Source: an uncultured Clostridium sp.
GTDB taxonomy: Bacteria; Bacillota; Clostridia; TANB77; CAG-508
DNA length: 64,000 bases
Assembly (NCBI GenBank): GCA_900551615.1
Contig: URWN01000001.1
Coordinates: 73,767 to 137,766, forward strand
Direction of reading: 5' to 3'
The translations under genes were made by a program, and so were the position numbers. The notes below the pieces were generated by a model, which worked only from the letters and a program-made list of their open reading frames with translations, was not told where the DNA came from and made no database searches. Shown here piece by piece: positions 4,466 through 45,854 of the stretch (the first letter of the stretch is position 1; every line of letters begins with the position of its first letter).

Positions 4466-4925
4466 ATTTATCGCAGCATTCTTCACATTCTTCGCAACTT
4501 CTATCATCACAATGAGGTTTTTTATCTCCTATAAAACAATCGCATTTATCGTGTTTATCACCTTTTAGGCATTTACCCTCATGATGACATTTTGCACAAA
4601 TTTTAATTTTCTTTGTAGCATTTGCCCAAATTTGAATAGCATAGTGTCTGTCAGGACAAAGAGGACCAAAAACGAATTCACCTTCACAGTCAGTAAAAGT
4701 ATGACCTATTGGTTTTCTAACTTCTTTACCACAATCATAAGCAATTTCAGTTAATTTAACAACAGCATCACGTACTGGTTCTTTAAAACAATCTTTTATA
4801 ACTCCATAAATAACATCTCTATTATCTTCTGGTAAAGTAATATCTAAATCAAATTGTTTACCTCCAGATATAACCCCATCAACATCTAGTATTGGACATC
4901 CAGGTTTTTTTTCTTCCATTTCCAT
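4464..4925 (-). CDS. Cys-rich protein with carboxypeptidase-regulatory-like (prealbumin-fold) domain; possible spore coat or metal-binding protein
   Basis: 153 aa. GVIKD...PVRDAVVKL...TDCEGEFVFGPL...YAIQIW pattern, then a tail with about 15 Cys and several His (CAKCHHEGKC...CEECEECCDK). Confidence 0.6.
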   Translation of the reverse strand: MEMEEKKPGCPILDVDGVISGGKQFDLDITLPEDNRDVIYGVIKDCFKEPVRDAVVKLTEIAYDCGKEVRKPIGHTFTDCEGEFVFGPLCPDRHYAIQIWANATKKIKICAKCHHEGKCLKGDKHDKCDCFIGDKKPHCDDRSCEECEECCDK

Positions 4926-5096
4926 AAAAATTACATCCTTTCATTTTTATTTTAATTATTCAAACATAATGTCTGATTAATATATAATATGAAAAAACGA
5001 ATAAATTGACAAACAATATATAAAAATAATGTTGAAATATAAAAAAATATGTTATATAATATACAAGAAGGTTAATTTATAATTAGGAGAGAAAAA

Positions 5097-6065: not shown

Positions 6066-6118
6066 ATATAATATACAATGAATAAATTACCACTCTTTGG
6101 CAAACAATAAAAACAAAA

Positions 6119-9100
6119 ATGTTTGCAAGGAGTGGAATTTTTTTGAAAGAAAACAAAAAACTAAAAATAACAGGAACAATGCTAGAAAAAAGCCAATTAG
6201 AAAAACATTTAGAAAAAATAGCATCAAACCACAATACAATGGCCAAAACACCAAAAGACACATACCCAATACCACAACTAATAGAAAATTTTAAAACAAT
6301 AGAAGAAGTATACAACTTATTAAATGAACATCTAAAACTTGGAATCAACATACACCCAGCAGGAGAATGGCTATTAGACAATTTCTATATAATAGAAGAA
6401 ACAGTAAAACAAATTCAAAAAGAATTACCATTAAATAAATACACAAACTTTGTAGGAATAGCAAATGGAGAATATAAAGGGTTTGCCAGAATATATGTAT
6501 TAGCAGCAGAAATAGTAGCATACACAGACAACAAAATAGAAAGAGAAAACTTAGAAGACTATTTAATAAGCTATCAAAGCAAAAAAACACTAAGCATGGA
6601 TGAAATATGGAATATAGGAATATTTTTACAAATAGCAATAATAGAAAACATAACAGAAATATGTGCACAAATATATAGTAGTCAAATGCAAAAATATAGA
6701 GCAGAAAACATAGCAGAAAGGCTAGTAGAAAACAAAGAAAAATCACAAATCAAATTTAAAAACAGCAATAAAATAGAAAAAGAAATATATCAAGACATGA
6801 GATATCCATTTATAGAATATATGTCATATATTTTAAAAAGATATGGGAAAAAGGCAAATGCATACTTAAATATACTTGAAGAAGTAGTAGAAAAACTAGG
6901 AACAACAGTATCAGACGTTATAAAAAAAGAACACTTTGAAATAGCCACACAAAAAGTATTAATGGGAAACAGTATAACAAGCATAAAAGAAATACAAAGA
7001 ATAAACTTTTTAGAAATATTTGAAAAAATAAATGGAGTAGAAGAAATATTAAAACAAGACCCAGTAAATGTATACGAAAAAATGGACTATAAAACAAAAG
7101 AATACTATAGAGGAAAAATAAAAGAAATAAGCAAAAAAACAAAAATATCAGAAATATATATAGCAAAGAAAATGCTAGAACTAGCACAAGAAGAAATAAA
7201 AATAACAAGCACAGAAGAACAACAAGAAACACATCAAACAGAGATACCAAAAAGAGCCCACATAGGATATTACTTAATAGATAACGGAATAAATGAATTA
7301 TATAAAAAACTAGAATACACAAACAAAAAAGAAAAAACATCACAAACTAAAACAAAAATATATATTACAACAATAACAATATTATCAGTAATATTATCAA
7401 TAATTTTAAGCTACATTCTAAATATAAAAACAAAAAATATAGCAATTACAATAATAAGTTTTATACTATTTTTAATACCATCAAGTGAAGTAATCATTCA
7501 AATAGCACAAACTATACTAAACAAAACAGTAAAACCAAAGCTAATACCCAAAATAGATTTTTCAAATGGAATAGACAAAGAAAATACAACAATGGTCGTA
7601 ATACCAACAATAGTAAAAAGCAAAGAAAAAGTAGCAGAAATGTTTCAAAATTTAGAAGTATATTATTTAGCAAATAAATCAGAAAACATATATTTCACAT
7701 TATTAGGAGACTGCTCAGAAAGCCTAACACAAGAAGAAAAATTTGACGAAGAAGTAATTCAAGAAGGAAAAAAACAAGTCGAAAGGCTAAACCAAAAATA
7801 TCAAAATGAAGAATTTCCAATATTTAATTTTATATATAGAAAAAGAGAATGGAACGAAAAAGAAGGAACTTATTTAGGCTGGGAACGAAAAAGAGGACTA
7901 TTAAATCAATTCAATGAATTCATTTTGCAAGAAAAAAATCCATTTAAAACAAATACAATGCAGTCAATACCAACAGAAAAGCTAAGAAATATAAAATATA
8001 TAATAACACTAGATGCAGACACAGACCTAGTACTAAATTCGGCATTAGAACTAGTAGGAACAATGGCCCACATACTAAATAGACCAGTAATAGATAAAGA
8101 AAAAAACATAGTAATAGATGGATATGGAATAATGCAACCGAGAGTAGGAATTAATCTAGACATAAGTTATAAAACATTATTTACAAAAATATTTGCAGGA
8201 GCAGGGGGAATAGACAGTTACACGAATGCAATATCAGATATATATCAGGATAATTTTAAAGAAGGAATCTTTACAGGAAAAGGTATATATAACCTAAAAG
8301 TATTTTCACAGGTAATGAAAAATGCAATTCCAGAAAACACAGTATTAAGTCACGATTTATTAGAAGGATGTTACTTAAGATGTGGTCTAGTTTCAGATAT
8401 TATGCTAATGGATGGGTACCCAACAAAATATATGAGCTTTATGAACAGGCTTTCAAGATGGATTAGAGGAGACTGGCAAATAACCAAATGGTTATCTAAA
8501 AAAAGCCCATTAAATACACTTTCAAAATACAAAATTTTTGATAATTTAAGAAGAAGTTTATTTGAAATTTCAATATTAGTAGCACTAATTTATATAAATA
8601 TAATTGGAAAAATATTTAATATAAATATATTAAATATAAATGTAATTTTGATTTTAATTGAAATAGTACCATTTATATTAGAATTAGTAAATTATTTAAT
8701 TGCCAAAAGAGAAGGGGAAGAAAAACAAAAAACATTTACACCCAAAATATCAGGCTTAAAAGGAATAATTTTAAGGACAATAATTACACTAGGATGTCTT
8801 CCATATAAAGCATATACTTGTTTAAAAGCAATAGCAAAAACAATATATAGAGTAGCAATAACACACAAAAACTTATTAGAATGGACAACATCAGAAGAAG
8901 CAGAAAAAACAACTAAAACAGATATAATATCATATTACAAAAACATGTTAATTAATGTGATTTCAGGAGCAATAGCCATTATATTTTATGCCAACAGTAA
9001 TAACATTCTAGCATTAGTACTTGGAATACTATGGATTATAACACCAACAATTATGTATTGCATAAGTAAAGAAAAACAAGAAAAAACAGCTATAGAATTA

Positions 9101-12100
9101 CTAACAGATAAAGAACAAAAATATATTCTAGAAATGGCAAAAAAAACATGGAACTTTTTTGAACAATATCTCAGAAAAGAAGACAACTATCTAATACCAG
9201 ACAATTATCAAGAAGACAGAAAAAATAAAATTGTTAGAAGAACATCATCAACAAATATAGGATTATCAATGATGGCAGTAATATCTGCAAATGATTTAGG
9301 ATTTATAAACTATGAGAAAACAATAGAGCTATTAAAAAATATTTTAACAACAGTAGATGAACTGCAAAAATGGAATGGGCATTTATACAATTGGTATAAT
9401 ACAGAAACAAAAGAACCATTGTATCCAAGATACGTATCAACAGTTGATAGCGGAAATTTTATTGGATATATGTATGTAATAAAAAATTGGTTAGAAAGTC
9501 AAAACAAAAAAGAACAAGTGCCTGAAATAAAAGAAAATGAAATAAACCAACTATTAGAAATAGTAGATAGAACAATAAAAAATACAGACTTCTCACACTT
9601 ATACAAAAAAGAACAAAGAATATTCTCAATCGGATTCAATATAGAAGAAAACAAACTAACAAACTCGTATTATGACTTATTAGCATCAGAAGCAAGACAA
9701 GCAAGTTTAATAGCAATAGCAAAAAAAGATGTGCCAGCAAAACACTGGAACTCACTAAGCAGAACACTTACAACACTTGGAAAATATAAAGGACTTGTAT
9801 CATGGTCTGGAACATCATTTGAATATTTAATGCCAAACATCAATATACCTAAATATAAAGGAAGCTTGTTAGATGAATCATGTAAATTTATGATAAAAAG
9901 TCAAATGGAATATGCCAAAAAATTGCAGATTCCATGGGGAATATCAGAAGCGGCATTTAATTTAAAAGACTTATACTCAAACTATCAATATAAAGCATTT
10001 GGAATTCCGTGGCTTGGACTAAAAAGAGGTTTAGCAGATGAGATGGTTGTAGCAACATATGGAAGTGTTTTGGCAATAACAGATTATCCAAAAGAGGTAT
10101 ATCAAAACTTAAAAATATTAGAAAAATACGGAATGTATAATAAATATGGATTTTACGAATCAATAGATTTTACACCAGAAAGATTAAAAAAAGGAAGCAA
10201 AGCAGAAGCAGTAAAAACATATATGGCACATCATCAAAGTTTAATTTTATTATCTATAAACAATTTATTTAACAACAATATTCTGCAAAAAAGATTTATA
10301 GAAAATCCAGAAATAAATGCAGTAAGCATTCTATTGCAAGAAACCATGCCAGAAACGGCAATAATAACAAAAGAAAACAAAGAAAAAGTAGAAAAATTTA
10401 AATATGTTGATTATGAAGACTACATCCAAGACACATACAAAAAAATAGATGAAAGATTAATAAGAGGAAATGTTATAGCAAATGAAGATTACTTTATTGC
10501 AATGAACCAAAAAGGAGAAGGAGCAAGCAAATACAAGAATATATTAATAAACAGATTCAAAAGTACAGATGACTATCCACAAGGAATATTTTTCGATATA
10601 AAAAATATAAAATCAAAAAAAATATGGAGTTCAAATTATAGTCCAAACAACGGAAAATATCAGATAAGTTTTATGCCAGATAAAATGGAACAAGAAATGA
10701 TAAATGATAATATAAAAACCAAAATTGAAACAATAATAGCACCAGATGAACCAGTAGAAATAAGAAAACTATCATTAGAAAATTTAGGAAATGAAGACGA
10801 AATACTAGAAGTAACATCTCACTTTGAGCCAGTATTATCACCAAAAGAACAAGACTATGCACATCCAGCATTTAATAATTTATTTTTAATGTTTGATTTT
10901 GACCATGAAACAAACAGCATAATTGTAAAAAGAAGAAAAAAAGCAGAGCATGAACAAAAAATATATATGGCAGTAAATTTATCCACAAATAGTGAAACAA
11001 TTGGGGATTTAGAGTATGAAATAGACGCAGAAAAGTTCACAGGAAGAGGAAATATAGGAATACCACAAATGGTAAAAAACTCAAGTCCATTTTCTAAAAA
11101 AATAGGGCTAGTAACAGAACCAGTTGTTGCATTAAAAAGAACAATGAAAACAAAAAAACAAGAAAAAACAGAAATAAATTTAATTATAGCAGTCGGAGAA
11201 ACAAAAGAAAAAGTAATAGAAAATATAAAAAAATATTCAGTTGAAGAAAACATTAAAAAGGCATTTGAACTATCAAAAGCAAAAAATGAAGCACAAACAA
11301 GATATTTAAGAATAAAAGGTTCACAAATACGAGATTATCAAAAAATATTATCATATATAATTTTCAATAATCCATCTAAAAAAATCAATTTAGAAAAATT
11401 ACCAAAAGAAAAATATAGTCAAAGTGAACTTTGGAAATATGGAATTTCAGGAGACATACCAATAATATTAGTAAAAATAAAAGATAGTAACGACACATAT
11501 GTTGTAAAAGAAGCGTTAAAAGCATATGAATTTATAAGAACAAAAGGATTTGAAACAGAACTTGTAATTATAGATGAAGAAAAATACAGCTATGAAAATT
11601 ATGTAATGGAAGATATAGAAGAAGTAATTTTAAACAGTCAATTATCATATTTAAAAAATATCAGAGGCGGAATCTTCCAATTAAACAAAAACGAAATAAG
11701 CAAAGAAGATATGAATTTATTGCAATTTATTGCAGGAATAATAATAGATGCAAAAAAAGGAGGACTAAATAATTCATTAAAAGATATAGAAGAAGAATAT
11801 TTAGAAAAATATAAAAAAATTCCAAATGAACCAGAAAATATAATTATTGAACCAGAAAATCAAGAAAATATAGACATTTTACAAAACACACAAGACTTAA
11901 AATATTACAACGAATATGGAGCATTTTCAGCAGATGGAAAAGAATATTTAATAAGAACAAACAAAGAAAACAGACTTCCAACAGTATGGTCACACATAAT
12001 GGCAAACAAAAAATTTGGAACATTAGTCACAGAAAATATGGGTGGATATACTTGGTACAAAAACAGCAGACTAAATAGAGTAACATCATGGGAAAATCAA

Positions 12101-14317
12101 CCAAACTATGACATACCATCAGAAATAATATATTTAAAAGATCAAGAAACAAAAAAGGTTTGGTCACTCGGACTAAACCCTATGCCAGATAATAAAAATT
12201 ATAATGTGATTTATGGATTTGGTTATGCTAAATTTCTTCATAAAAGCGATGGAATAGAACAAGAATTAGAAGTTTTTGTACCAAAAGAAGACAGTGTAAA
12301 AATACAAATTTTAAAATTAAAAAATATGAATTTAAGTAGAAAAACAATAAAAATTATATATTATATGAAACCAGTATTAGGAGAAGATGAGCTTAAATCA
12401 AATGGATATATAAATTTAAAATATGATAAAAATAACAATATAATATGTTCACAAAATTTATATAACTCAGAATTCAAAAATGACATTATTTATGTATCAA
12501 GTAGTGAAAAAATAAAAAGTTATACAGGAGACAAAAACTTCTTTTTAGGAAACGGAAATATATCAAACCCAGATGGGGTAAAAAAATCAAGTTTAAACAA
12601 CGAAAACAGTCTAGGAAAAAAGCCATGCATAGCATATGAAATAGAAGTAGAATTAGACAGCCTATCAGAAAAAGAAATTGTATTTTTATTAGGAGCAGAA
12701 GAATCAATTATAGACAGCAAAAACATTGCATATAAATACAGTAAAATACAAAATTGTAAGCAAGAACTTGAAAATGTAAAAACTTATTGGCGTGAACTAC
12801 TAGGAAGACTGCAAGTATATACACCACTTGAATCTATGAACATCATATTGAATGGCTGGGATATATATCAAACAATACAAAGTAGATTATTAGGTAAAAC
12901 AGGATATTATCAATCAGGAGGAGCATATGGATTTAGAGACCAACTACAAGACACACTAGCACTAAAATATTTAGAGCCACAAATGTTAAAAAATCAAATA
13001 ATAAAACATAGTAAACAACAATTTTTAGAAGGTGATGTAGAACACTGGTGGCATGAAGAAACAGGAAGAGGAATAAGAACCAGAATGTCAGACGACTTAT
13101 TGTGGCTTGTATATTTAACATGTGAATATATAGAATTTACAGGAGATATGAGCATTTTAAATGAAAAAACACCATATTTAGTAGGAAAAGAACTTGAAGA
13201 AAATGAAGATGAAAGATACGATAAATTTGAATATACAAAAGAAACGGGAAGCATATATGAACACTGTATAAAAGCAATAGAAAGAAGCCTAAACTTTGGA
13301 GAAAACGGTTTGCCTAAAATAGGAAGTGGAGACTGGAACGATGGATTTAGCAATGTTGGCCCAAAAGGCAAAGGCGAAAGCGTATGGCTTGGATTTTTCT
13401 TGTATAACGTGCTAGATAGATTTACAAAAATTATGGAACAAATAAAAGACGATTTATTAGAAAATGAAGCAACCATTGAAAACAAAATAGAAAAATATAA
13501 ATTAATAATGCAACAATTAAAAAGAGCATTAAACTCAAATGGATGGGACGGAAGATGGTACAAAAGAGCATTTATGGATGATGGAAACACATTAGGAAGC
13601 ATGGAAAATGATGAATGCAGAATAGACAGCATAGCACAAAGTTGGAGCACAATCTCAAAAGCAGGAGACAATGACAAAAAATATATATCAATGGAAAGTT
13701 TAGAAAATCACTTAATAGACAGAGAAAATGGAATAGTAAAATTACTAGATCCACCATTTGAAAAAGGAAAATTAAATCCAGGATATATAAAATCATACAT
13801 GCCAGGAGTCAGAGAAAATGGAGGACAATATACACATGCAAGTTGTTGGGTAATAATAGCAGAATCAATGTTAGGATTTGGAGACAAAGCAACTGAAATA
13901 TACAGAATGATAAATCCAATAGAACATGCGCGTACTAAAGAAAGTAGCAAAAAATACAAAGTGGAACCATATGTAATACCAGCAGACATTTATGGAGCAA
14001 GTAATTTAGCAGGAAGAGGGGGGTGGACATGGTACACTGGTTCAGCAAGTTGGTATTATAAAGCCGGAATTGAAAATATATTGGGGTTAAAAATAGAAAA
14101 TGGAGTATTAAAAATAGAACCATGTATTCCAACATCTTGGAAAGAATATAGCATAAAATATAAGTGGAAAAAGGCTATATATAATATAAATGTCAAAAAT
14201 CCAAATGGAAAAAATACAGGTGTTGAAAGGGTTATTGTAAATGGAATAGAATTGGGAGAACAAAAAGAAATAAGACTTGAAGAAAACGGAATTTTTAATG
14301 TAGAGGTTTTAATGTGA
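6119..14317 (+). CDS. cyclic beta-1,2-glucan synthase-like giant protein (GT84 glycosyltransferase + TM regions + GH94 glycan phosphorylase)
   Basis: 2732-aa uninterrupted ORF. GT region with ITLDADTDL (DxD), several TM blocks, and a C-terminal GH94-type region (GGAYGFRDQLQD, EHWWHE, GSGDWNDG). True start uncertain: ATG 6119, TTG 6143 (10 nt after AAGGAG) or ATG 6179. Confidence 0.85.
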   Translation: MFARSGIFLKENKKLKITGTMLEKSQLEKHLEKIASNHNTMAKTPKDTYPIPQLIENFKTIEEVYNLLNEHLKLGINIHPAGEWLLDNFYIIEETVKQIQKELPLNKYTNFVGIANGEYKGFARIYVLAAEIVAYTDNKIERENLEDYLISYQSKKTLSMDEIWNIGIFLQIAIIENITEICAQIYSSQMQKYRAENIAERLVENKEKSQIKFKNSNKIEKEIYQDMRYPFIEYMSYILKRYGKKANAYLNILEEVVEKLGTTVSDVIKKEHFEIATQKVLMGNSITSIKEIQRINFLEIFEKINGVEEILKQDPVNVYEKMDYKTKEYYRGKIKEISKKTKISEIYIAKKMLELAQEEIKITSTEEQQETHQTEIPKRAHIGYYLIDNGINELYKKLEYTNKKEKTSQTKTKIYITTITILSVILSIILSYILNIKTKNIAITIISFILFLIPSSEVIIQIAQTILNKTVKPKLIPKIDFSNGIDKENTTMVVIPTIVKSKEKVAEMFQNLEVYYLANKSENIYFTLLGDCSESLTQEEKFDEEVIQEGKKQVERLNQKYQNEEFPIFNFIYRKREWNEKEGTYLGWERKRGLLNQFNEFILQEKNPFKTNTMQSIPTEKLRNIKYIITLDADTDLVLNSALELVGTMAHILNRPVIDKEKNIVIDGYGIMQPRVGINLDISYKTLFTKIFAGAGGIDSYTNAISDIYQDNFKEGIFTGKGIYNLKVFSQVMKNAIPENTVLSHDLLEGCYLRCGLVSDIMLMDGYPTKYMSFMNRLSRWIRGDWQITKWLSKKSPLNTLSKYKIFDNLRRSLFEISILVALIYINIIGKIFNINILNINVILILIEIVPFILELVNYLIAKREGEEKQKTFTPKISGLKGIILRTIITLGCLPYKAYTCLKAIAKTIYRVAITHKNLLEWTTSEEAEKTTKTDIISYYKNMLINVISGAIAIIFYANSNNILALVLGILWIITPTIMYCISKEKQEKTAIELLTDKEQKYILEMAKKTWNFFEQYLRKEDNYLIPDNYQEDRKNKIVRRTSSTNIGLSMMAVISANDLGFINYEKTIELLKNILTTVDELQKWNGHLYNWYNTETKEPLYPRYVSTVDSGNFIGYMYVIKNWLESQNKKEQVPEIKENEINQLLEIVDRTIKNTDFSHLYKKEQRIFSIGFNIEENKLTNSYYDLLASEARQASLIAIAKKDVPAKHWNSLSRTLTTLGKYKGLVSWSGTSFEYLMPNINIPKYKGSLLDESCKFMIKSQMEYAKKLQIPWGISEAAFNLKDLYSNYQYKAFGIPWLGLKRGLADEMVVATYGSVLAITDYPKEVYQNLKILEKYGMYNKYGFYESIDFTPERLKKGSKAEAVKTYMAHHQSLILLSINNLFNNNILQKRFIENPEINAVSILLQETMPETAIITKENKEKVEKFKYVDYEDYIQDTYKKIDERLIRGNVIANEDYFIAMNQKGEGASKYKNILINRFKSTDDYPQGIFFDIKNIKSKKIWSSNYSPNNGKYQISFMPDKMEQEMINDNIKTKIETIIAPDEPVEIRKLSLENLGNEDEILEVTSHFEPVLSPKEQDYAHPAFNNLFLMFDFDHETNSIIVKRRKKAEHEQKIYMAVNLSTNSETIGDLEYEIDAEKFTGRGNIGIPQMVKNSSPFSKKIGLVTEPVVALKRTMKTKKQEKTEINLIIAVGETKEKVIENIKKYSVEENIKKAFELSKAKNEAQTRYLRIKGSQIRDYQKILSYIIFNNPSKKINLEKLPKEKYSQSELWKYGISGDIPIILVKIKDSNDTYVVKEALKAYEFIRTKGFETELVIIDEEKYSYENYVMEDIEEVILNSQLSYLKNIRGGIFQLNKNEISKEDMNLLQFIAGIIIDAKKGGLNNSLKDIEEEYLEKYKKIPNEPENIIIEPENQENIDILQNTQDLKYYNEYGAFSADGKEYLIRTNKENRLPTVWSHIMANKKFGTLVTENMGGYTWYKNSRLNRVTSWENQPNYDIPSEIIYLKDQETKKVWSLGLNPMPDNKNYNVIYGFGYAKFLHKSDGIEQELEVFVPKEDSVKIQILKLKNMNLSRKTIKIIYYMKPVLGEDELKSNGYINLKYDKNNNIICSQNLYNSEFKNDIIYVSSSEKIKSYTGDKNFFLGNGNISNPDGVKKSSLNNENSLGKKPCIAYEIEVELDSLSEKEIVFLLGAEESIIDSKNIAYKYSKIQNCKQELENVKTYWRELLGRLQVYTPLESMNIILNGWDIYQTIQSRLLGKTGYYQSGGAYGFRDQLQDTLALKYLEPQMLKNQIIKHSKQQFLEGDVEHWWHEETGRGIRTRMSDDLLWLVYLTCEYIEFTGDMSILNEKTPYLVGKELEENEDERYDKFEYTKETGSIYEHCIKAIERSLNFGENGLPKIGSGDWNDGFSNVGPKGKGESVWLGFFLYNVLDRFTKIMEQIKDDLLENEATIENKIEKYKLIMQQLKRALNSNGWDGRWYKRAFMDDGNTLGSMENDECRIDSIAQSWSTISKAGDNDKKYISMESLENHLIDRENGIVKLLDPPFEKGKLNPGYIKSYMPGVRENGGQYTHASCWVIIAESMLGFGDKATEIYRMINPIEHARTKESSKKYKVEPYVIPADIYGASNLAGRGGWTWYTGSASWYYKAGIENILGLKIENGVLKIEPCIPTSWKEYSIKYKWKKAIYNINVKNPNGKNTGVERVIVNGIELGEQKEIRLEENGIFNVEVLM

Positions 14318-16668: not shown

Positions 16669-16700
16669 GGCCAGTTGGGGCCAGTTGGGGCCAGTTGGGA
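16669..16700 (+). repeat. GC-rich decamer tandem repeat (GGCCAGTTGG)x3.2
   Basis: CCAGTTGGGG at 16671, 16681 and 16691 (the last is CCAGTTGGGA). G-tracts at 16677-80, 16687-90, 16697-99 and 16711-13. Confidence 0.85.
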
Positions 16701-18821: not shown

Positions 18822-18903
18822 CTATTTAAATTTTAAATCAAAAGCTTTTAATCAAAATTAAATTAGATCTAATTTTAAAAAATCCAAATTTAAAACATTA
18901 AAA

Positions 18904-19560
18904 ATGGAGGTGAAAACGCATAAAGTGAATCAAAAGTTTGTATCAAACAGTAACTATGTTTTCAGAAGAATATTAAATTCTGAAGATTGTTTAGACATTC
19001 TAAAAAACTTAATAGAAGCAATATTAGATATTAATATAAAAGAAATATCATTAAATCCATATTTAAAAAAGATAGAAAAATACCTACCAAAGGAAGAAAA
19101 TTTTGGAATAGCAGATGTAAGAGTAACAACAGCAGAAAATGAAGAAATAAATATAGGAATTCAATTTATAGATGGAATATATGTACAAACCAAAATGTTA
19201 ATGTATTATTCTCAAATTCATCTAAATCAACTAGAATATGGAGATAATAGAGAATTTGCAAAAACAATAACAATAAACTTACTAGACTTTAAATATTTTT
19301 CTTCAAAAGAATATCAAAAAATAATAAGAATAAAAACGAATGAAGGAAATATAAAACTTGAAGAATTAGAAATGTATACAATAGAATTACCAAAATTTAA
19401 ATGTTACGATGAAAATAATATGACAGGAAAAGAACAATGGATTCAATATTTAAAAGGAGCAAATGAATATACATTAGAAAAAATAAAAAATAAAAACAAA
19501 TATATAGAAAAGCTAGATGAACTTGTAGAAAAATATTGGCTTGAAGAAAAAATGGAATAA
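18904..19560 (+). CDS. Rpn / PD-(D/E)XK (PDDEXK_2) family nuclease-like protein, possibly catalytically degenerate
   Basis: 218 aa. Pattern (F)RRIL...E.L..ILKNLIEAIL...I..I, ADVRV...INIGIQ resembles the family core D...(E)xQ, but with Gly where Glu is expected. Start uncertain: ATG 18904 overlaps a GGAGGTGA SD, and in-frame GTG 18925 is an alternative. Confidence 0.5.
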   Translation: MEVKTHKVNQKFVSNSNYVFRRILNSEDCLDILKNLIEAILDINIKEISLNPYLKKIEKYLPKEENFGIADVRVTTAENEEINIGIQFIDGIYVQTKMLMYYSQIHLNQLEYGDNREFAKTITINLLDFKYFSSKEYQKIIRIKTNEGNIKLEELEMYTIELPKFKCYDENNMTGKEQWIQYLKGANEYTLEKIKNKNKYIEKLDELVEKYWLEEKME

Positions 19561-21870: not shown

Positions 21871-21973
21871 TCTTTTGTTAAAAATTATAACATTATTTTA
21901 TATTAAAGATATTTAAAAATCAATAAATTTAGTAAATTTTAGAAAAATAAAGTTACTAAATAATAATTTCATA

Positions 21974-22162
21974 GTGATGTTTATTGATATATTCTTCTTT
22001 GTAAGTAACCAAATGTGATTGGAGCAATATTAGAATTTATTAAATATTTTTTGGACAAGAGTTCACTTTAGTGGAAGGGAGTACAAAAAATATTTTAGAA
22101 AATCTTATATTGTGTATTGAACCGAGGTCACTTACAAATATCAATATATCAATAAACAGCAC
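21974..22162 (+). repeat. imperfect-palindrome intergenic element, copy A (37-nt arms plus ~115-nt conserved core)
   Basis: Arms 21974-22010 and 22126-22162 are complementary at 32/37 positions. The core is about 90% identical to copy B. Confidence 0.8.
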
Positions 22163-22212
22163 ATGGAAAATCAGTATTTATTAACAAAAAATCTAAAAGG
22201 AAAGGAAAAAAT

Positions 22213-34197: not shown

Positions 34198-34210
34198 TTT
34201 TATAATAATA

Positions 34211-34421
34211 TTCAAATTGCATATATCTATACCTTTTTGAAGGTATTGTTTGATTGGAATGAAAAATAGAACTTATTTCTAAAAAATATGAGGAATGTTC
34301 ACGGGAAAAGGCAAGAGCCTTTAAGCCTGAGTGAAAGAGGCTCATATTTTTTAGTTATAAGTTCTTTTTGAATGAAATGAAGAAAATAACTTCCAAAAGG
34401 TATAGATATATGCAATTTGAA
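34211..34421 (+). repeat. imperfect-palindrome intergenic element, diverged copy D (27/27 perfect arms)
   Basis: 34211-34237 is the exact reverse complement of 34395-34421. The interior shares TGATTGGA, GTTCAC..GGAARGG and ATATTTT(TT)AG blocks with copies A and B. Confidence 0.75.
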
Positions 34422-34583
34422 AAATATAAAAAACAAGTTCACACAAAATTTACACAAAAAATAACATTTGGGAATAATATAAAAATAAAATACTCATATA
34501 ATATAAATATAAAAATATGGGAGCAGAAAAATTGAAAGTTAAATAATAATCAATTAAAAGCACCGAAGAAAGGTGGAAACCAA

Positions 34584-43560: not shown

Positions 43561-43592
43561 CTACCCATTCCAAAATTTTATGGGTAGTTTTT
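43561..43592 (+). terminator. intrinsic terminator CTACCCA-loop-TGGGTAG plus T5
   Basis: 7-bp GC-containing stem 43561-43567 / 43581-43587, followed by TTTTT. Confidence 0.7.
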
Positions 43593-43603
43593 AATTGATA
43601 ATA

Positions 43604-43808
43604 GTTTCAATGTTTATAATTGCTACATGATGATATTTGTATTTGACTGAATGTGATTGAAACAATATTAAAATTTATTAAATATTTTTTGGACAAGAGT
43701 TCACTTTAGTGGAAGGGAGTCCAAAAAGTATTCTAGAAATTATTATATTGTGTATTGAACCAAAGTCAAGTACAAATATCATCATGTAGCAATTACAAAC
43801 ATGAAAAC
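43604..43808 (+). repeat. imperfect-palindrome intergenic element, copy B (38-nt arms plus conserved core)
   Basis: 43610-43647 pairs with 43765-43802, with only one G-T wobble and one A-C mismatch. The core is about 90% identical to copy A. Confidence 0.8.
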
Positions 43809-43908
43809 ATTGTATATTAACATTTTTATTACAATTATGAAAATATTATTGAAAAAAACAAACAAAACAATTATAATAAAATAGACGAAAGAGAAAGGAA
43901 GAAAAAAT

Positions 43909-45680: not shown

Positions 45681-45747
45681 TATTTTAGAAATTGTTATAT
45701 TGTGTATTGAACTGAAAGTAATTTTAAATATCATTATATAGCAATAC
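45681..45747 (+). repeat. right-half copy (C) of the palindromic element, carrying the promoter-like module
   Basis: TATTTTAGAAATTGTTATATTGTGTATTGAAC...TATCAT aligns with the right halves of copies A and B. The left arm and left core are absent. Confidence 0.7.
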
Positions 45748-45854
45748 TAAAACAAAATATAATATATTGTAACCAAAAGAAGTTTAAAAGCATAGAAAAT
45801 AGTAAATAATAAAAACAGAATATAAAAGATAAAAACACAAAAAAGGAGGCCAAT

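Follow-up and report, generated by a model that had tools for sequence, protein, structure and literature searches.

Copy A, a palindromic intergenic element of 234 nt (21952..22185, plus strand), was studied in a 64,000-nt stretch of DNA (the whole of the DNA analyzed, hereafter the window) from an uncultured Clostridium sp. (assembly GCA_900551615.1, contig URWN01000001.1, positions 73,767 to 137,766), where it lies between comM and the divergently oriented gene of a penicillin-binding protein (minus strand). It probably represents a family of ~233-bp non-autonomous foldback MITEs (miniature inverted-repeat transposable elements) in uncultured, low-GC Clostridium of the human gut, the arms of which would be kept complementary mainly by a process acting at the DNA level. 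Of the features that define a MITE (PMC3184786), the family has the small size, the lack of coding capacity, the inverted repeats at its termini, a target-site duplication and copies at scattered loci, and it can therefore be placed among the bacterial MITEs of the ERIC, bcr1 or Correia type.

Copies, extent and fold of the element

Copies were collected with patterns taken from the hairpin tip of the element: an exact 22-nt pattern retrieved 10 loci in four uncultured Clostridium genome bins, and a 21-nt pattern retrieved 24 stretches in human-gut metagenomes. A profile search over the collected sequences distinguished 31 copies, 24 of them full length; the 29 copies beyond A and a second full element of the window, copy B, came without exception from uncultured gut Clostridium assemblies, and at least 19 full copies were independent, sitting at unrelated loci in at least five genomes. 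No family copy was present in viral contigs, which were scanned three times in all (once with the 21-nt tip pattern), and the lone viral-contig match, L057, was discarded as a chance 20-mer inside a coding region; blastn of the element against plasmid and phage collections gave no match either. The unit measures ~233 bp (range 225-237 bp) and ends in GTTACTRTATAATGG...CCATTATAYAGTAAC, its entire arms being inverted repeats, and every copy is intergenic. A conserved open reading frame (ORF) is absent from the copies, which hold only short ORFs with non-ATG starts that differ from copy to copy; a small protein encoded in the core was considered and rejected because its frame is not conserved. 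At gathering thresholds Rfam returned 0 matches for the whole window, in agreement with an earlier description made from the letters alone (the sequence-only reading), which could assign the element to no known RNA family, and in E-value mode it yielded for copies A and L002 only sub-threshold hairpins of plant microRNAs. The family is new and is not known from cultured organisms or from public repeat and RNA libraries.

The family profile aligns to copy A along model positions 1-232 (nhmmer, E = 2.4e-52), the termini being GTTACTAAATAAT...GTATTTATTAAC. The sequence-only reading had confined the palindrome to 21974-22162; the palindrome is real, but these limits are ~22 nt too narrow on each side, and both A and B are longer than first described because the relatives share the ends given above. 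The left arm (21952..22010, plus strand) comprises the outer terminus and the 37-nt arm at 21974-22010, and it pairs with 22126-22185 in the fold and in the consensus structure of the family; the right arm (22126..22185, plus strand) was delimited from sequence, fold and consensus structure. Counted directly, the segments 21974-22010 and 22126-22162 are complementary at 32 of 37 positions, the same figure as first reported, and an inverted-repeat search on A gave 44-nt arms with 82% complementarity. The conserved, asymmetric core (22011..22125, plus strand) differs from that of B at ~12 of 115 positions, which reproduces the identity of ~90% claimed for it; besides inner stems and purine-rich loops it contains an internal loop of 15x15 nt, in which lie the direct-repeat motifs GTGATTGRA and GTATTGAAC. 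At its apex is the tip hairpin TTCAC-TTTA-GTGGA (22062..22075, plus strand), with an invariant T-G pair and with AAGAG and AGGGAG loops on either side; this hairpin (helix 9) is invariant across the family copies, an invariance that is partly imposed, as the collecting pattern covers the hairpin.

The inner pairings and the tip hairpin that had been described for both A and B are found in both copies and also in their minimum-energy folds. A fold into one long rod, proposed at the same time, was recovered as well: the RNA fold of A reaches -56.3 kcal/mol (z = -7.5) and that of B -76.6 kcal/mol (z = -12.9), and 0 of 200 shuffles were as good in either case. For the whole of copy A as DNA, the folds of the plus and minus strands have -40.9 kcal/mol (z = -8.3) and -39.0 kcal/mol, respectively. 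Copy A is unchanged in four other strains (full in L035 and L037, cut at the contig end in L038 and L040).

Across the 19 independent copies, pairwise identity averages 0.91-0.93 in the core (search pattern excluded), 0.69-0.73 in the inner arms, 0.56-0.59 in the mid arms and ~0.63 at the outermost ends. The contrast between core and arms is thus general in the family, although partly imposed, the copies having been fished with a core pattern. The arms of A, B and a third copy align with one another and are thus homologous, although far more diverged than the core. Of the earlier statement that the arms of A and B differ at many positions and yet remain self-complementary, the complementarity holds, and the difference is one between alignable, homologous sequences. 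Subfamilies differ from one another by whole self-complementary blocks. When the coding strand and GC skew of the locus as a whole are taken as reference, the core is oriented against the main strand at ~13 of 16 loci in the UMGS1516-like subfamily and along it at 7 of 7 loci in the subfamily of the window; a flipped allele, L026 (see below), is among the exceptions. The chimeric copies L013, L015 and L019, on contigs with less than 2x coverage, were not relied on.

Insertion sites and changes in place

The 8 bases on each side of the element were compared at the loci where both canonical ends are intact (n = 8 independent loci). The two flanking 8-mers are identical at 8 of 8 positions at L005 (TTTAATAA) and L010 (TAATCTTT) and at 7 of 8 at L002 and L016, so that 8-bp direct duplications are found at 4 of the 8 loci (P ~1e-7), while 0 cross-locus pairings of flanks reach 7 of 8. 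On account of these clear duplications in the relatives, we regard the family as MITE-type. The sequence-only reading had preferred an ERIC-like structured repeat to a MITE; what it rested on, a conserved core with arms that co-vary, stands over 22 full copies, and the element is indeed a structured palindromic repeat of ERIC-like kind with dispersed copies, whereas the preference against a MITE falls with the duplications.

The L010 insertion (4825-5072; also L059-L072) coincides exactly with the stop codon of a pgsA-like gene, where the 8-bp duplication AAAGATTA and a terminal G contributed by the element restore the TAG. This copy was found in 18 further contigs of the same species, and the pgsA-greA spacer is without the element in two sister species. 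Just downstream of the insertion is a greA promoter (CTTGACA...TAATAT), which is conserved in the sister species that lack the element. L006 and L018 occupy one gene neighbourhood in two species, on different sides of a conserved segment, and are therefore independent insertions; for the same reason an ancient orthologous copy was rejected as an explanation of this pair. The flanks of L018 (5780-6060) are themselves inverted repeats (aaaatgtagcaatct...agattgctacatttt), and either the palindrome extends there past the usual ends or the element landed in a terminator-like hairpin. L031/L058 have the same right flank and right arm as L010 and a different left arm and left flank (an FtsH-like gene replaces greA), i.e., a rearrangement with its junction inside the element. 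Insertion of the core into pre-existing hairpins was also considered and rejected, on the grounds of the homology of the arms from locus to locus and of the position of the 8-bp duplications, which is external to the arms.

Covariation between the arms was assessed in 22 full copies over 81 pairs. Standard pairs fill 95.5% of the pair cells (84.6% in shuffles) and double-sided changes occur at 47 of the 81 pairs (20.9 in shuffles); 0 of 500 shuffles reach the observed values of pairing or of double changes, and a control in which the partner was offset by 1-3 columns was only 43-48% paired. The co-variation seen earlier between two copies thus extends to the further ones. Watson-Crick pairs make up 93% of the pair cells, G-T pairs (n = 34) are barely more numerous than A-C (n = 19; p = 0.053), and many of the double changes are transversions (UA to AU, CG to GC) without a wobble intermediate. 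L016, L008 and L030 are near-perfect palindromes, with 79-80 of 80 Watson-Crick pairs, and mismatches are carried by A (71/80), B (68/80) and L006 (58/80). The orientation of the copies to their neighbour genes is mixed (5 co-directional, 6 antisense, the others between convergent or divergent genes).

Three loci show how such changes arise in place. L008 and L028 are one locus in two strains (flanks 95-97% identical), at which the left arms differ by three substitutions and one single-base insertion, each of which has its mirror image in the right arm. L059 and L062-L065 are likewise one locus, with flanks 0.94% diverged and an element that differs at three sites only: G36T and C198A stand at paired positions, and C190T repairs a pre-existing A44-C190 mismatch. 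One left-arm mutation and one left-to-right conversion tract (positions 36-44, at least 9 nt) fits all three differences, whereas by our own estimate the probability of three independent hits is of the order of 1e-5. At the third locus, L002/L025 and L026 are collinear in their flanks and in the outer 42 nt of each arm, and the inner arms and core are reverse-complemented; the crossover falls within CTTATGGTAGTTTGCTGTATAAT, which includes the hypervariable mid-arm block. The identical stretch at this crossover is 23 nt, below typical assembly k-mers, and the flip is therefore unlikely to be an assembly artefact. Orientation is constant in the other contigs at four loci (18 at pgsA-greA, 4 at A, 6 at B and 10 at element D, a probable relative in the window described below), as read from assemblies, which report the majority state, and with two of the 4 locus-A contigs cut at the contig end.

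DNA-level homogenisation, rather than selection on RNA, is most likely behind the arm covariation, in view of the Watson-Crick pairs, the transversions among the double changes, the strand symmetry, the mixed orientation to neighbour genes, the mirrored indel, the conversion tract and the flipped core; the same observations tell against taking the covariation as evidence of a functional RNA rod.

Resident copies are also lost in part. At locus B, L045 and L046 have a 63-nt deletion of the hairpin tip, from GTGATTG to AAAAAATATTC. At locus A, in L036 (2913-2974) and L039, a 62-nt mini-hairpin with GTTAC...GTAAC ends replaces the 234-nt element between flanks that are 99.7% identical to those of the window; it lies inside a locally divergent tract that reaches the first 100 nt of comM, and it may stem from an old central deletion or represent a short family member in its own right. 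Long DNA palindromes typically undergo central deletion. These central losses, together with the loss of half of copy C (see below), argue against an essential host function at loci A, B and C.

Proposed mechanism and competing explanations

A DDE-type transposase encoded elsewhere would move the element in trans, making staggered cuts of 8 bp (perhaps 8-9 bp); its likely type would be one of the families that leave 8-9-bp duplications, such as IS256, ISL3, IS1595 or IS6. Once resident, one arm would template the other, through intramolecular template switching in the course of replication or through gene conversion from one inverted repeat to the other; a new mutation would thereby be copied to the partner arm or erased, which would give mirrored substitutions, mirrored indels and the repair of mismatches, and the process might occasionally invert the asymmetric core together with the inner arms. 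Template switching between the arms of inverted repeats homogenises the arms and inverts the spacer (PMC8604942), and it can create and maintain hairpins (PMC8794818). The core, the sole part without dyad symmetry and near constant among propagating copies, may carry a cis-acting sequence for propagation, while resident copies would be free to decay (cf. the tip deletions and half copies), and effects on neighbouring genes would be incidental. Nothing suggests that the element regulates comM or other neighbour genes in the window. The sequence TTGAAC (22117-22122)-16-TATCAA (22139-22144), to which the sequence-only reading had drawn attention as pointing at comM, is there, but it is no better than matches in shuffles; neither it nor the minus-strand TTGNCT-16-TATAAT was accepted as a promoter, since the -10 boxes differ from copy to copy, and scans for promoters and terminators gave matches no more frequent than in shuffles.

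Several observations weigh against a MITE with homogenised arms. Four of the 8 loci are without a clear duplication, which could be explained by recombination between copies, as at L031/L058. A base-exact empty site was not obtained: the pgsA-greA spacer of the sister species is too diverged for an exact comparison, and the alternative allele at locus A is the mini-hairpin. Neither the window nor ~450 kb of related loci, nor the collections of plasmids, phages and viruses, yielded an autonomous insertion sequence (IS) or transposase with matching ends; of the two marks by which the sequence-only reading would have recognised a plain MITE, target-site duplications are present in the relatives, and no resident IS sharing the ends was found. 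The profile search revealed no element with family ends and a coding interior, an all-against-all clustering of the ORFs from all loci no recurrent family near the copies, and Pfam, run on 20 ORFs of the window, no transposase or recombinase except a PDDEXK_2 gene, the window containing housekeeping genes and this one PDDEXK_2 protein. Most strain-level changes at B and D hit one arm only, which indicates that homogenisation in place is occasional and not constant. The core (0.91-0.93) is better conserved than the termini (0.63), which is unusual for a MITE, although collecting bias is partly responsible; the conserved purine-rich loops, the invariant T-G at the tip and the weak G-T excess would suit a strand-specific function in single-stranded form or as RNA; and the core orientation bias, opposed between subfamilies, is not predicted by a MITE with homogenised arms. 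The conservation of core over termini and the orientation bias remain odd features that this explanation leaves unexplained.

A structured non-coding or cis-acting RNA, such as has been proposed for ERIC and bcr1, in which a transcribed rod would have its pairing kept by selection on RNA, is unlikely, though it keeps some weight with us. The very strong covariation is in its favour, but wobble pairs are rare beside the 93% Watson-Crick pairs, many double changes are transversions, and within species the changes are explained by mirrored indels and a single conversion tract. The asymmetric internal loops that on the plus strand are purine-rich on both sides (AAGAG/AGGGAG, GAATGTGATTGAAA/GTGTATTGAACCGAAG) are typical of structured RNA, and the invariant wobble of the tip would be a C-A mismatch on the opposite strand, a strand preference to which the excess of G-T over A-C may be added; yet neither strand folds better than the other, the search pattern itself accounts in part for the constancy of the tip, and Rfam gave no match. 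Transcription with compensatory changes is documented for the bcr1 repeats of Bacillus (PMC3184786). Against a role as RNA, the present copies lie in mixed orientation to adjacent genes and are without a conserved internal promoter (candidate -10 boxes vary at critical positions), the core is flipped at one locus, and in some strains the tip or half of the element has been lost without replacement. Still harder to accept, and in our judgement highly improbable, is an inverton, in which the arms would be recombinase sites, the hypervariable mid-arm block the crossover spacer, and the flip of the core a switch for a neighbour gene. The opposite orientations of core and inner arms in L002/L025 and L026, with the crossover inside the mid-arm stretch, are what such a switch would leave; but orientation is identical among assemblies at the four other loci (as majority orientation, with which low-level flipping is compatible), and the flanks of the variable block are without clear dyad symmetry. 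The flipped segment is ~150 bp long. Switches of Clostridioides difficile are of similar size. Many copies lie just upstream of genes, and B and L002 have a minus-strand TTG(A/T)CT-16-TATAAT at the junction of right arm and core; promoter-like matches are, however, no commoner than in shuffles, and the T of the best -10 box is C or G in many copies. ORF clustering and Pfam found no recombinase gene recurrent near the copies or in the window, a result compatible with a distant global invertase, and the target-site duplications would be superfluous in a dedicated switch.

Two further explanations give a single-stranded form the leading part. The element may be a distinct kind of mobile DNA hairpin that is propagated or maintained as a folded single strand coupled to replication, one of its arms being rebuilt from the other and its core being able to flip; we assign this a small probability. 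If true, it would explain why the core is better conserved than the ends, why the mid arms are hypervariable and yet self-complementary, and why the bias relative to the main coding (leading) strand is opposed between subfamilies, none of which (conserved core, variable self-complementary mid-arms, orientation bias) is predicted by an ordinary MITE. In the other explanation, which appears to us improbable, complementarity would be regenerated at each transposition through a single-stranded or half-element intermediate and fold-back priming of the second arm on the first, so that each new copy would start as a perfect palindrome around a unique core, with the core in either orientation. The near-perfect L016, L008 and L030 (79-80/80), set against fixed and apparently older copies with 9-22 unpaired positions, would agree with it, although the relation between age of a copy and pairing is only loosely supported. 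Strain-level changes in B and D that are mostly single-armed, as well as subfamilies that differ by entire self-complementary blocks, are also as expected; the mirrored changes and the flip, however, occurred in place at orthologous loci with flanks and duplications unchanged. A bias of core orientation relative to the main coding strand would follow from a single-stranded step tied to replication, but the bias is opposite in two subfamilies, the 8-bp target-site duplication points to ordinary double-strand integration of the DDE type, and no enzyme has been identified.

With a foldback MITE homogenised at the DNA level as the preferred explanation, the family is a caution for the discovery of non-coding RNAs, as templating between the arms of a DNA palindrome can yield covariation that R-scape or alifold would score as RNA structure. 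The ratio of wobble to A-C pairs, the fold of each strand, mirrored indels, conversion tracts within species and inversion of the core are diagnostics by which an RNA cause and a DNA cause can be separated. In a gut bacterium, the family also documents naturally occurring quasipalindrome processes (homogenisation, inversion of the spacer and deletion of the centre); it marks genome rearrangement, with junctions inside copies (the left flank of L031/L058; the lost left half of C), and could be used for strain typing in a poorly known group of uncultured Clostridium.

Comparison with known repeats and further members in the window

The palindrome, pairing and duplication features of the ERIC elements are reportedly described by Wilson and Sharp (2006). 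ERIC/IRU sequences of Enterobacteriaceae (~127-bp imperfect palindromes, classed as MITEs) are, like the present family, dispersed and intergenic and fold over their whole length, and both have changes in the two arms that preserve pairing, short flanking duplications and no transposase of their own (PMC3184786). The present family differs in its length (233 bp, not 127 bp), in a variable 8-bp duplication in place of a TA motif and in its low-GC Clostridium host, and its covariation can be traced to conversion and core inversion at the DNA level; it is set apart from ERIC by description and had no match in the collections searched. In the Bacillus cereus group, the bcr1 repeats (non-autonomous elements of group A, ~155 bp) are likewise mobile repeats of Firmicutes, with flanking direct repeats and with compensatory changes that preserve a folded structure; their locations are not conserved between strains (PMC3184786). 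They have 5-bp direct repeats and a cruciform-like structure of two stem-loops and are transcribed, whereas the family described here has 8-bp repeats and one long rod.

Correia/NEMIS elements of Neisseria share with the family the status of MITEs, terminal inverted repeats, a long RNA hairpin, scattered positions beside genes and a role as substrates of rearrangement. Correia elements have a TA duplication and an IHF site, carry defined promoters that point outward and are processed by RNase III. None of these four traits could be shown for the present family. REPINs, which are mobilised by RAYT, are hairpin-forming doublets that likewise propagate as a unit and keep their pairing. They are shorter and GC-rich, are without target-site duplications and depend on a single-copy RAYT gene. 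In contrast to REPIN/RAYT and IS200/IS605 types, which leave no target-site duplication and are mobilised by an HUH (Y1) transposase, the present copies have 8-bp duplications, and no recurrent enzyme gene was seen near them, although RAYT itself was not searched for. Invertons (flgB and cwpV of Clostridioides difficile; the Mpi-controlled promoters of Bacteroides fragilis) have an asymmetric segment of 150-200 bp between inverted repeats and occur in both orientations, as here; for this family, however, neither a recombinase nor a conserved promoter was found, the orientation was fixed in the strains examined at four loci, and the copies have target-site duplications and a transposon-like dispersal. 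A parallel in process is quasipalindrome template switching, the arm homogenisation, clustered multinucleotide changes and spacer inversion of which are all three found here (PMC8604942, PMC8794818). Published cases mostly concern short repeats (yeast, primates, rRNA, E. coli reporters), whereas here the process would act on arms of 55-60 nt in a mobile element and would shape an entire family.

The sequence-only reading had counted two copies in the window. A and B are real, and the 64-kb window holds in addition a third, partial copy (C) and one probable distant relative (D), i.e., three family copies in all beside D. Copy B (43590..43821, plus strand; nhmmer E = 4.1e-54) is a full element, the RNA fold of which is given above. 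It lies immediately 3' of a terminator-like hairpin and 88 nt upstream of a gene for a WG-repeat protein, and it was found in other strains with its orientation unchanged. The gene further upstream of B is in L042-L046 an ORF of 561-562 aa on the opposite strand, where the window has a gene for a two-component histidine kinase. Copy C (45681..45773, plus strand; nhmmer, model positions 140-203) is a right half only (core and arm of that side, with the GTAAC end), its tip and left half having been deleted; it follows directly after the terminator of the WG-repeat gene and is fixed in six strains. In the low-coverage contig L019 the right flank of copy C is joined to a fuller, chimeric copy in another left context.

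Element D (34199..34433, plus strand; inverted repeats I1 and I6, DNA fold z = -11.7) is ~235 nt long and, judging from its size and architecture, which are those of the family, is a probable distant relative; its homology was judged by eye, and nhmmer does not reach it. Its arms of 49 nt are complementary to 88%, and it has a TTCAC...GTGAA tip with a 28-nt GC-rich insert, purine-rich loops and GAATGAAA motifs in a large internal loop. As such a relative, it shows that the cores of the family can diverge. It lies between a 484-aa ORF and a small gene with a RelA_SpoT domain, and it is fixed and unflipped in 10 strains, where the single-nucleotide polymorphisms affect single arms only.

Other features of the window were noted in passing. 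The PDDEXK_2 gene (PF12784, 'PD-(D/E)XK nuclease family transposase', Rpn-like) extends over 18862-19560, 2.4 kb from copy A; it is the sole transposase-labelled gene of the window, and it was not seen near the other copies. In the AT-rich spacer between a response-regulator gene and ispG, the GC-rich decamer GCCAGTTGGG is repeated three times in exact tandem (16670-16699), and a single ORF of ~2743 aa occupies 6086-14317 on the plus strand.

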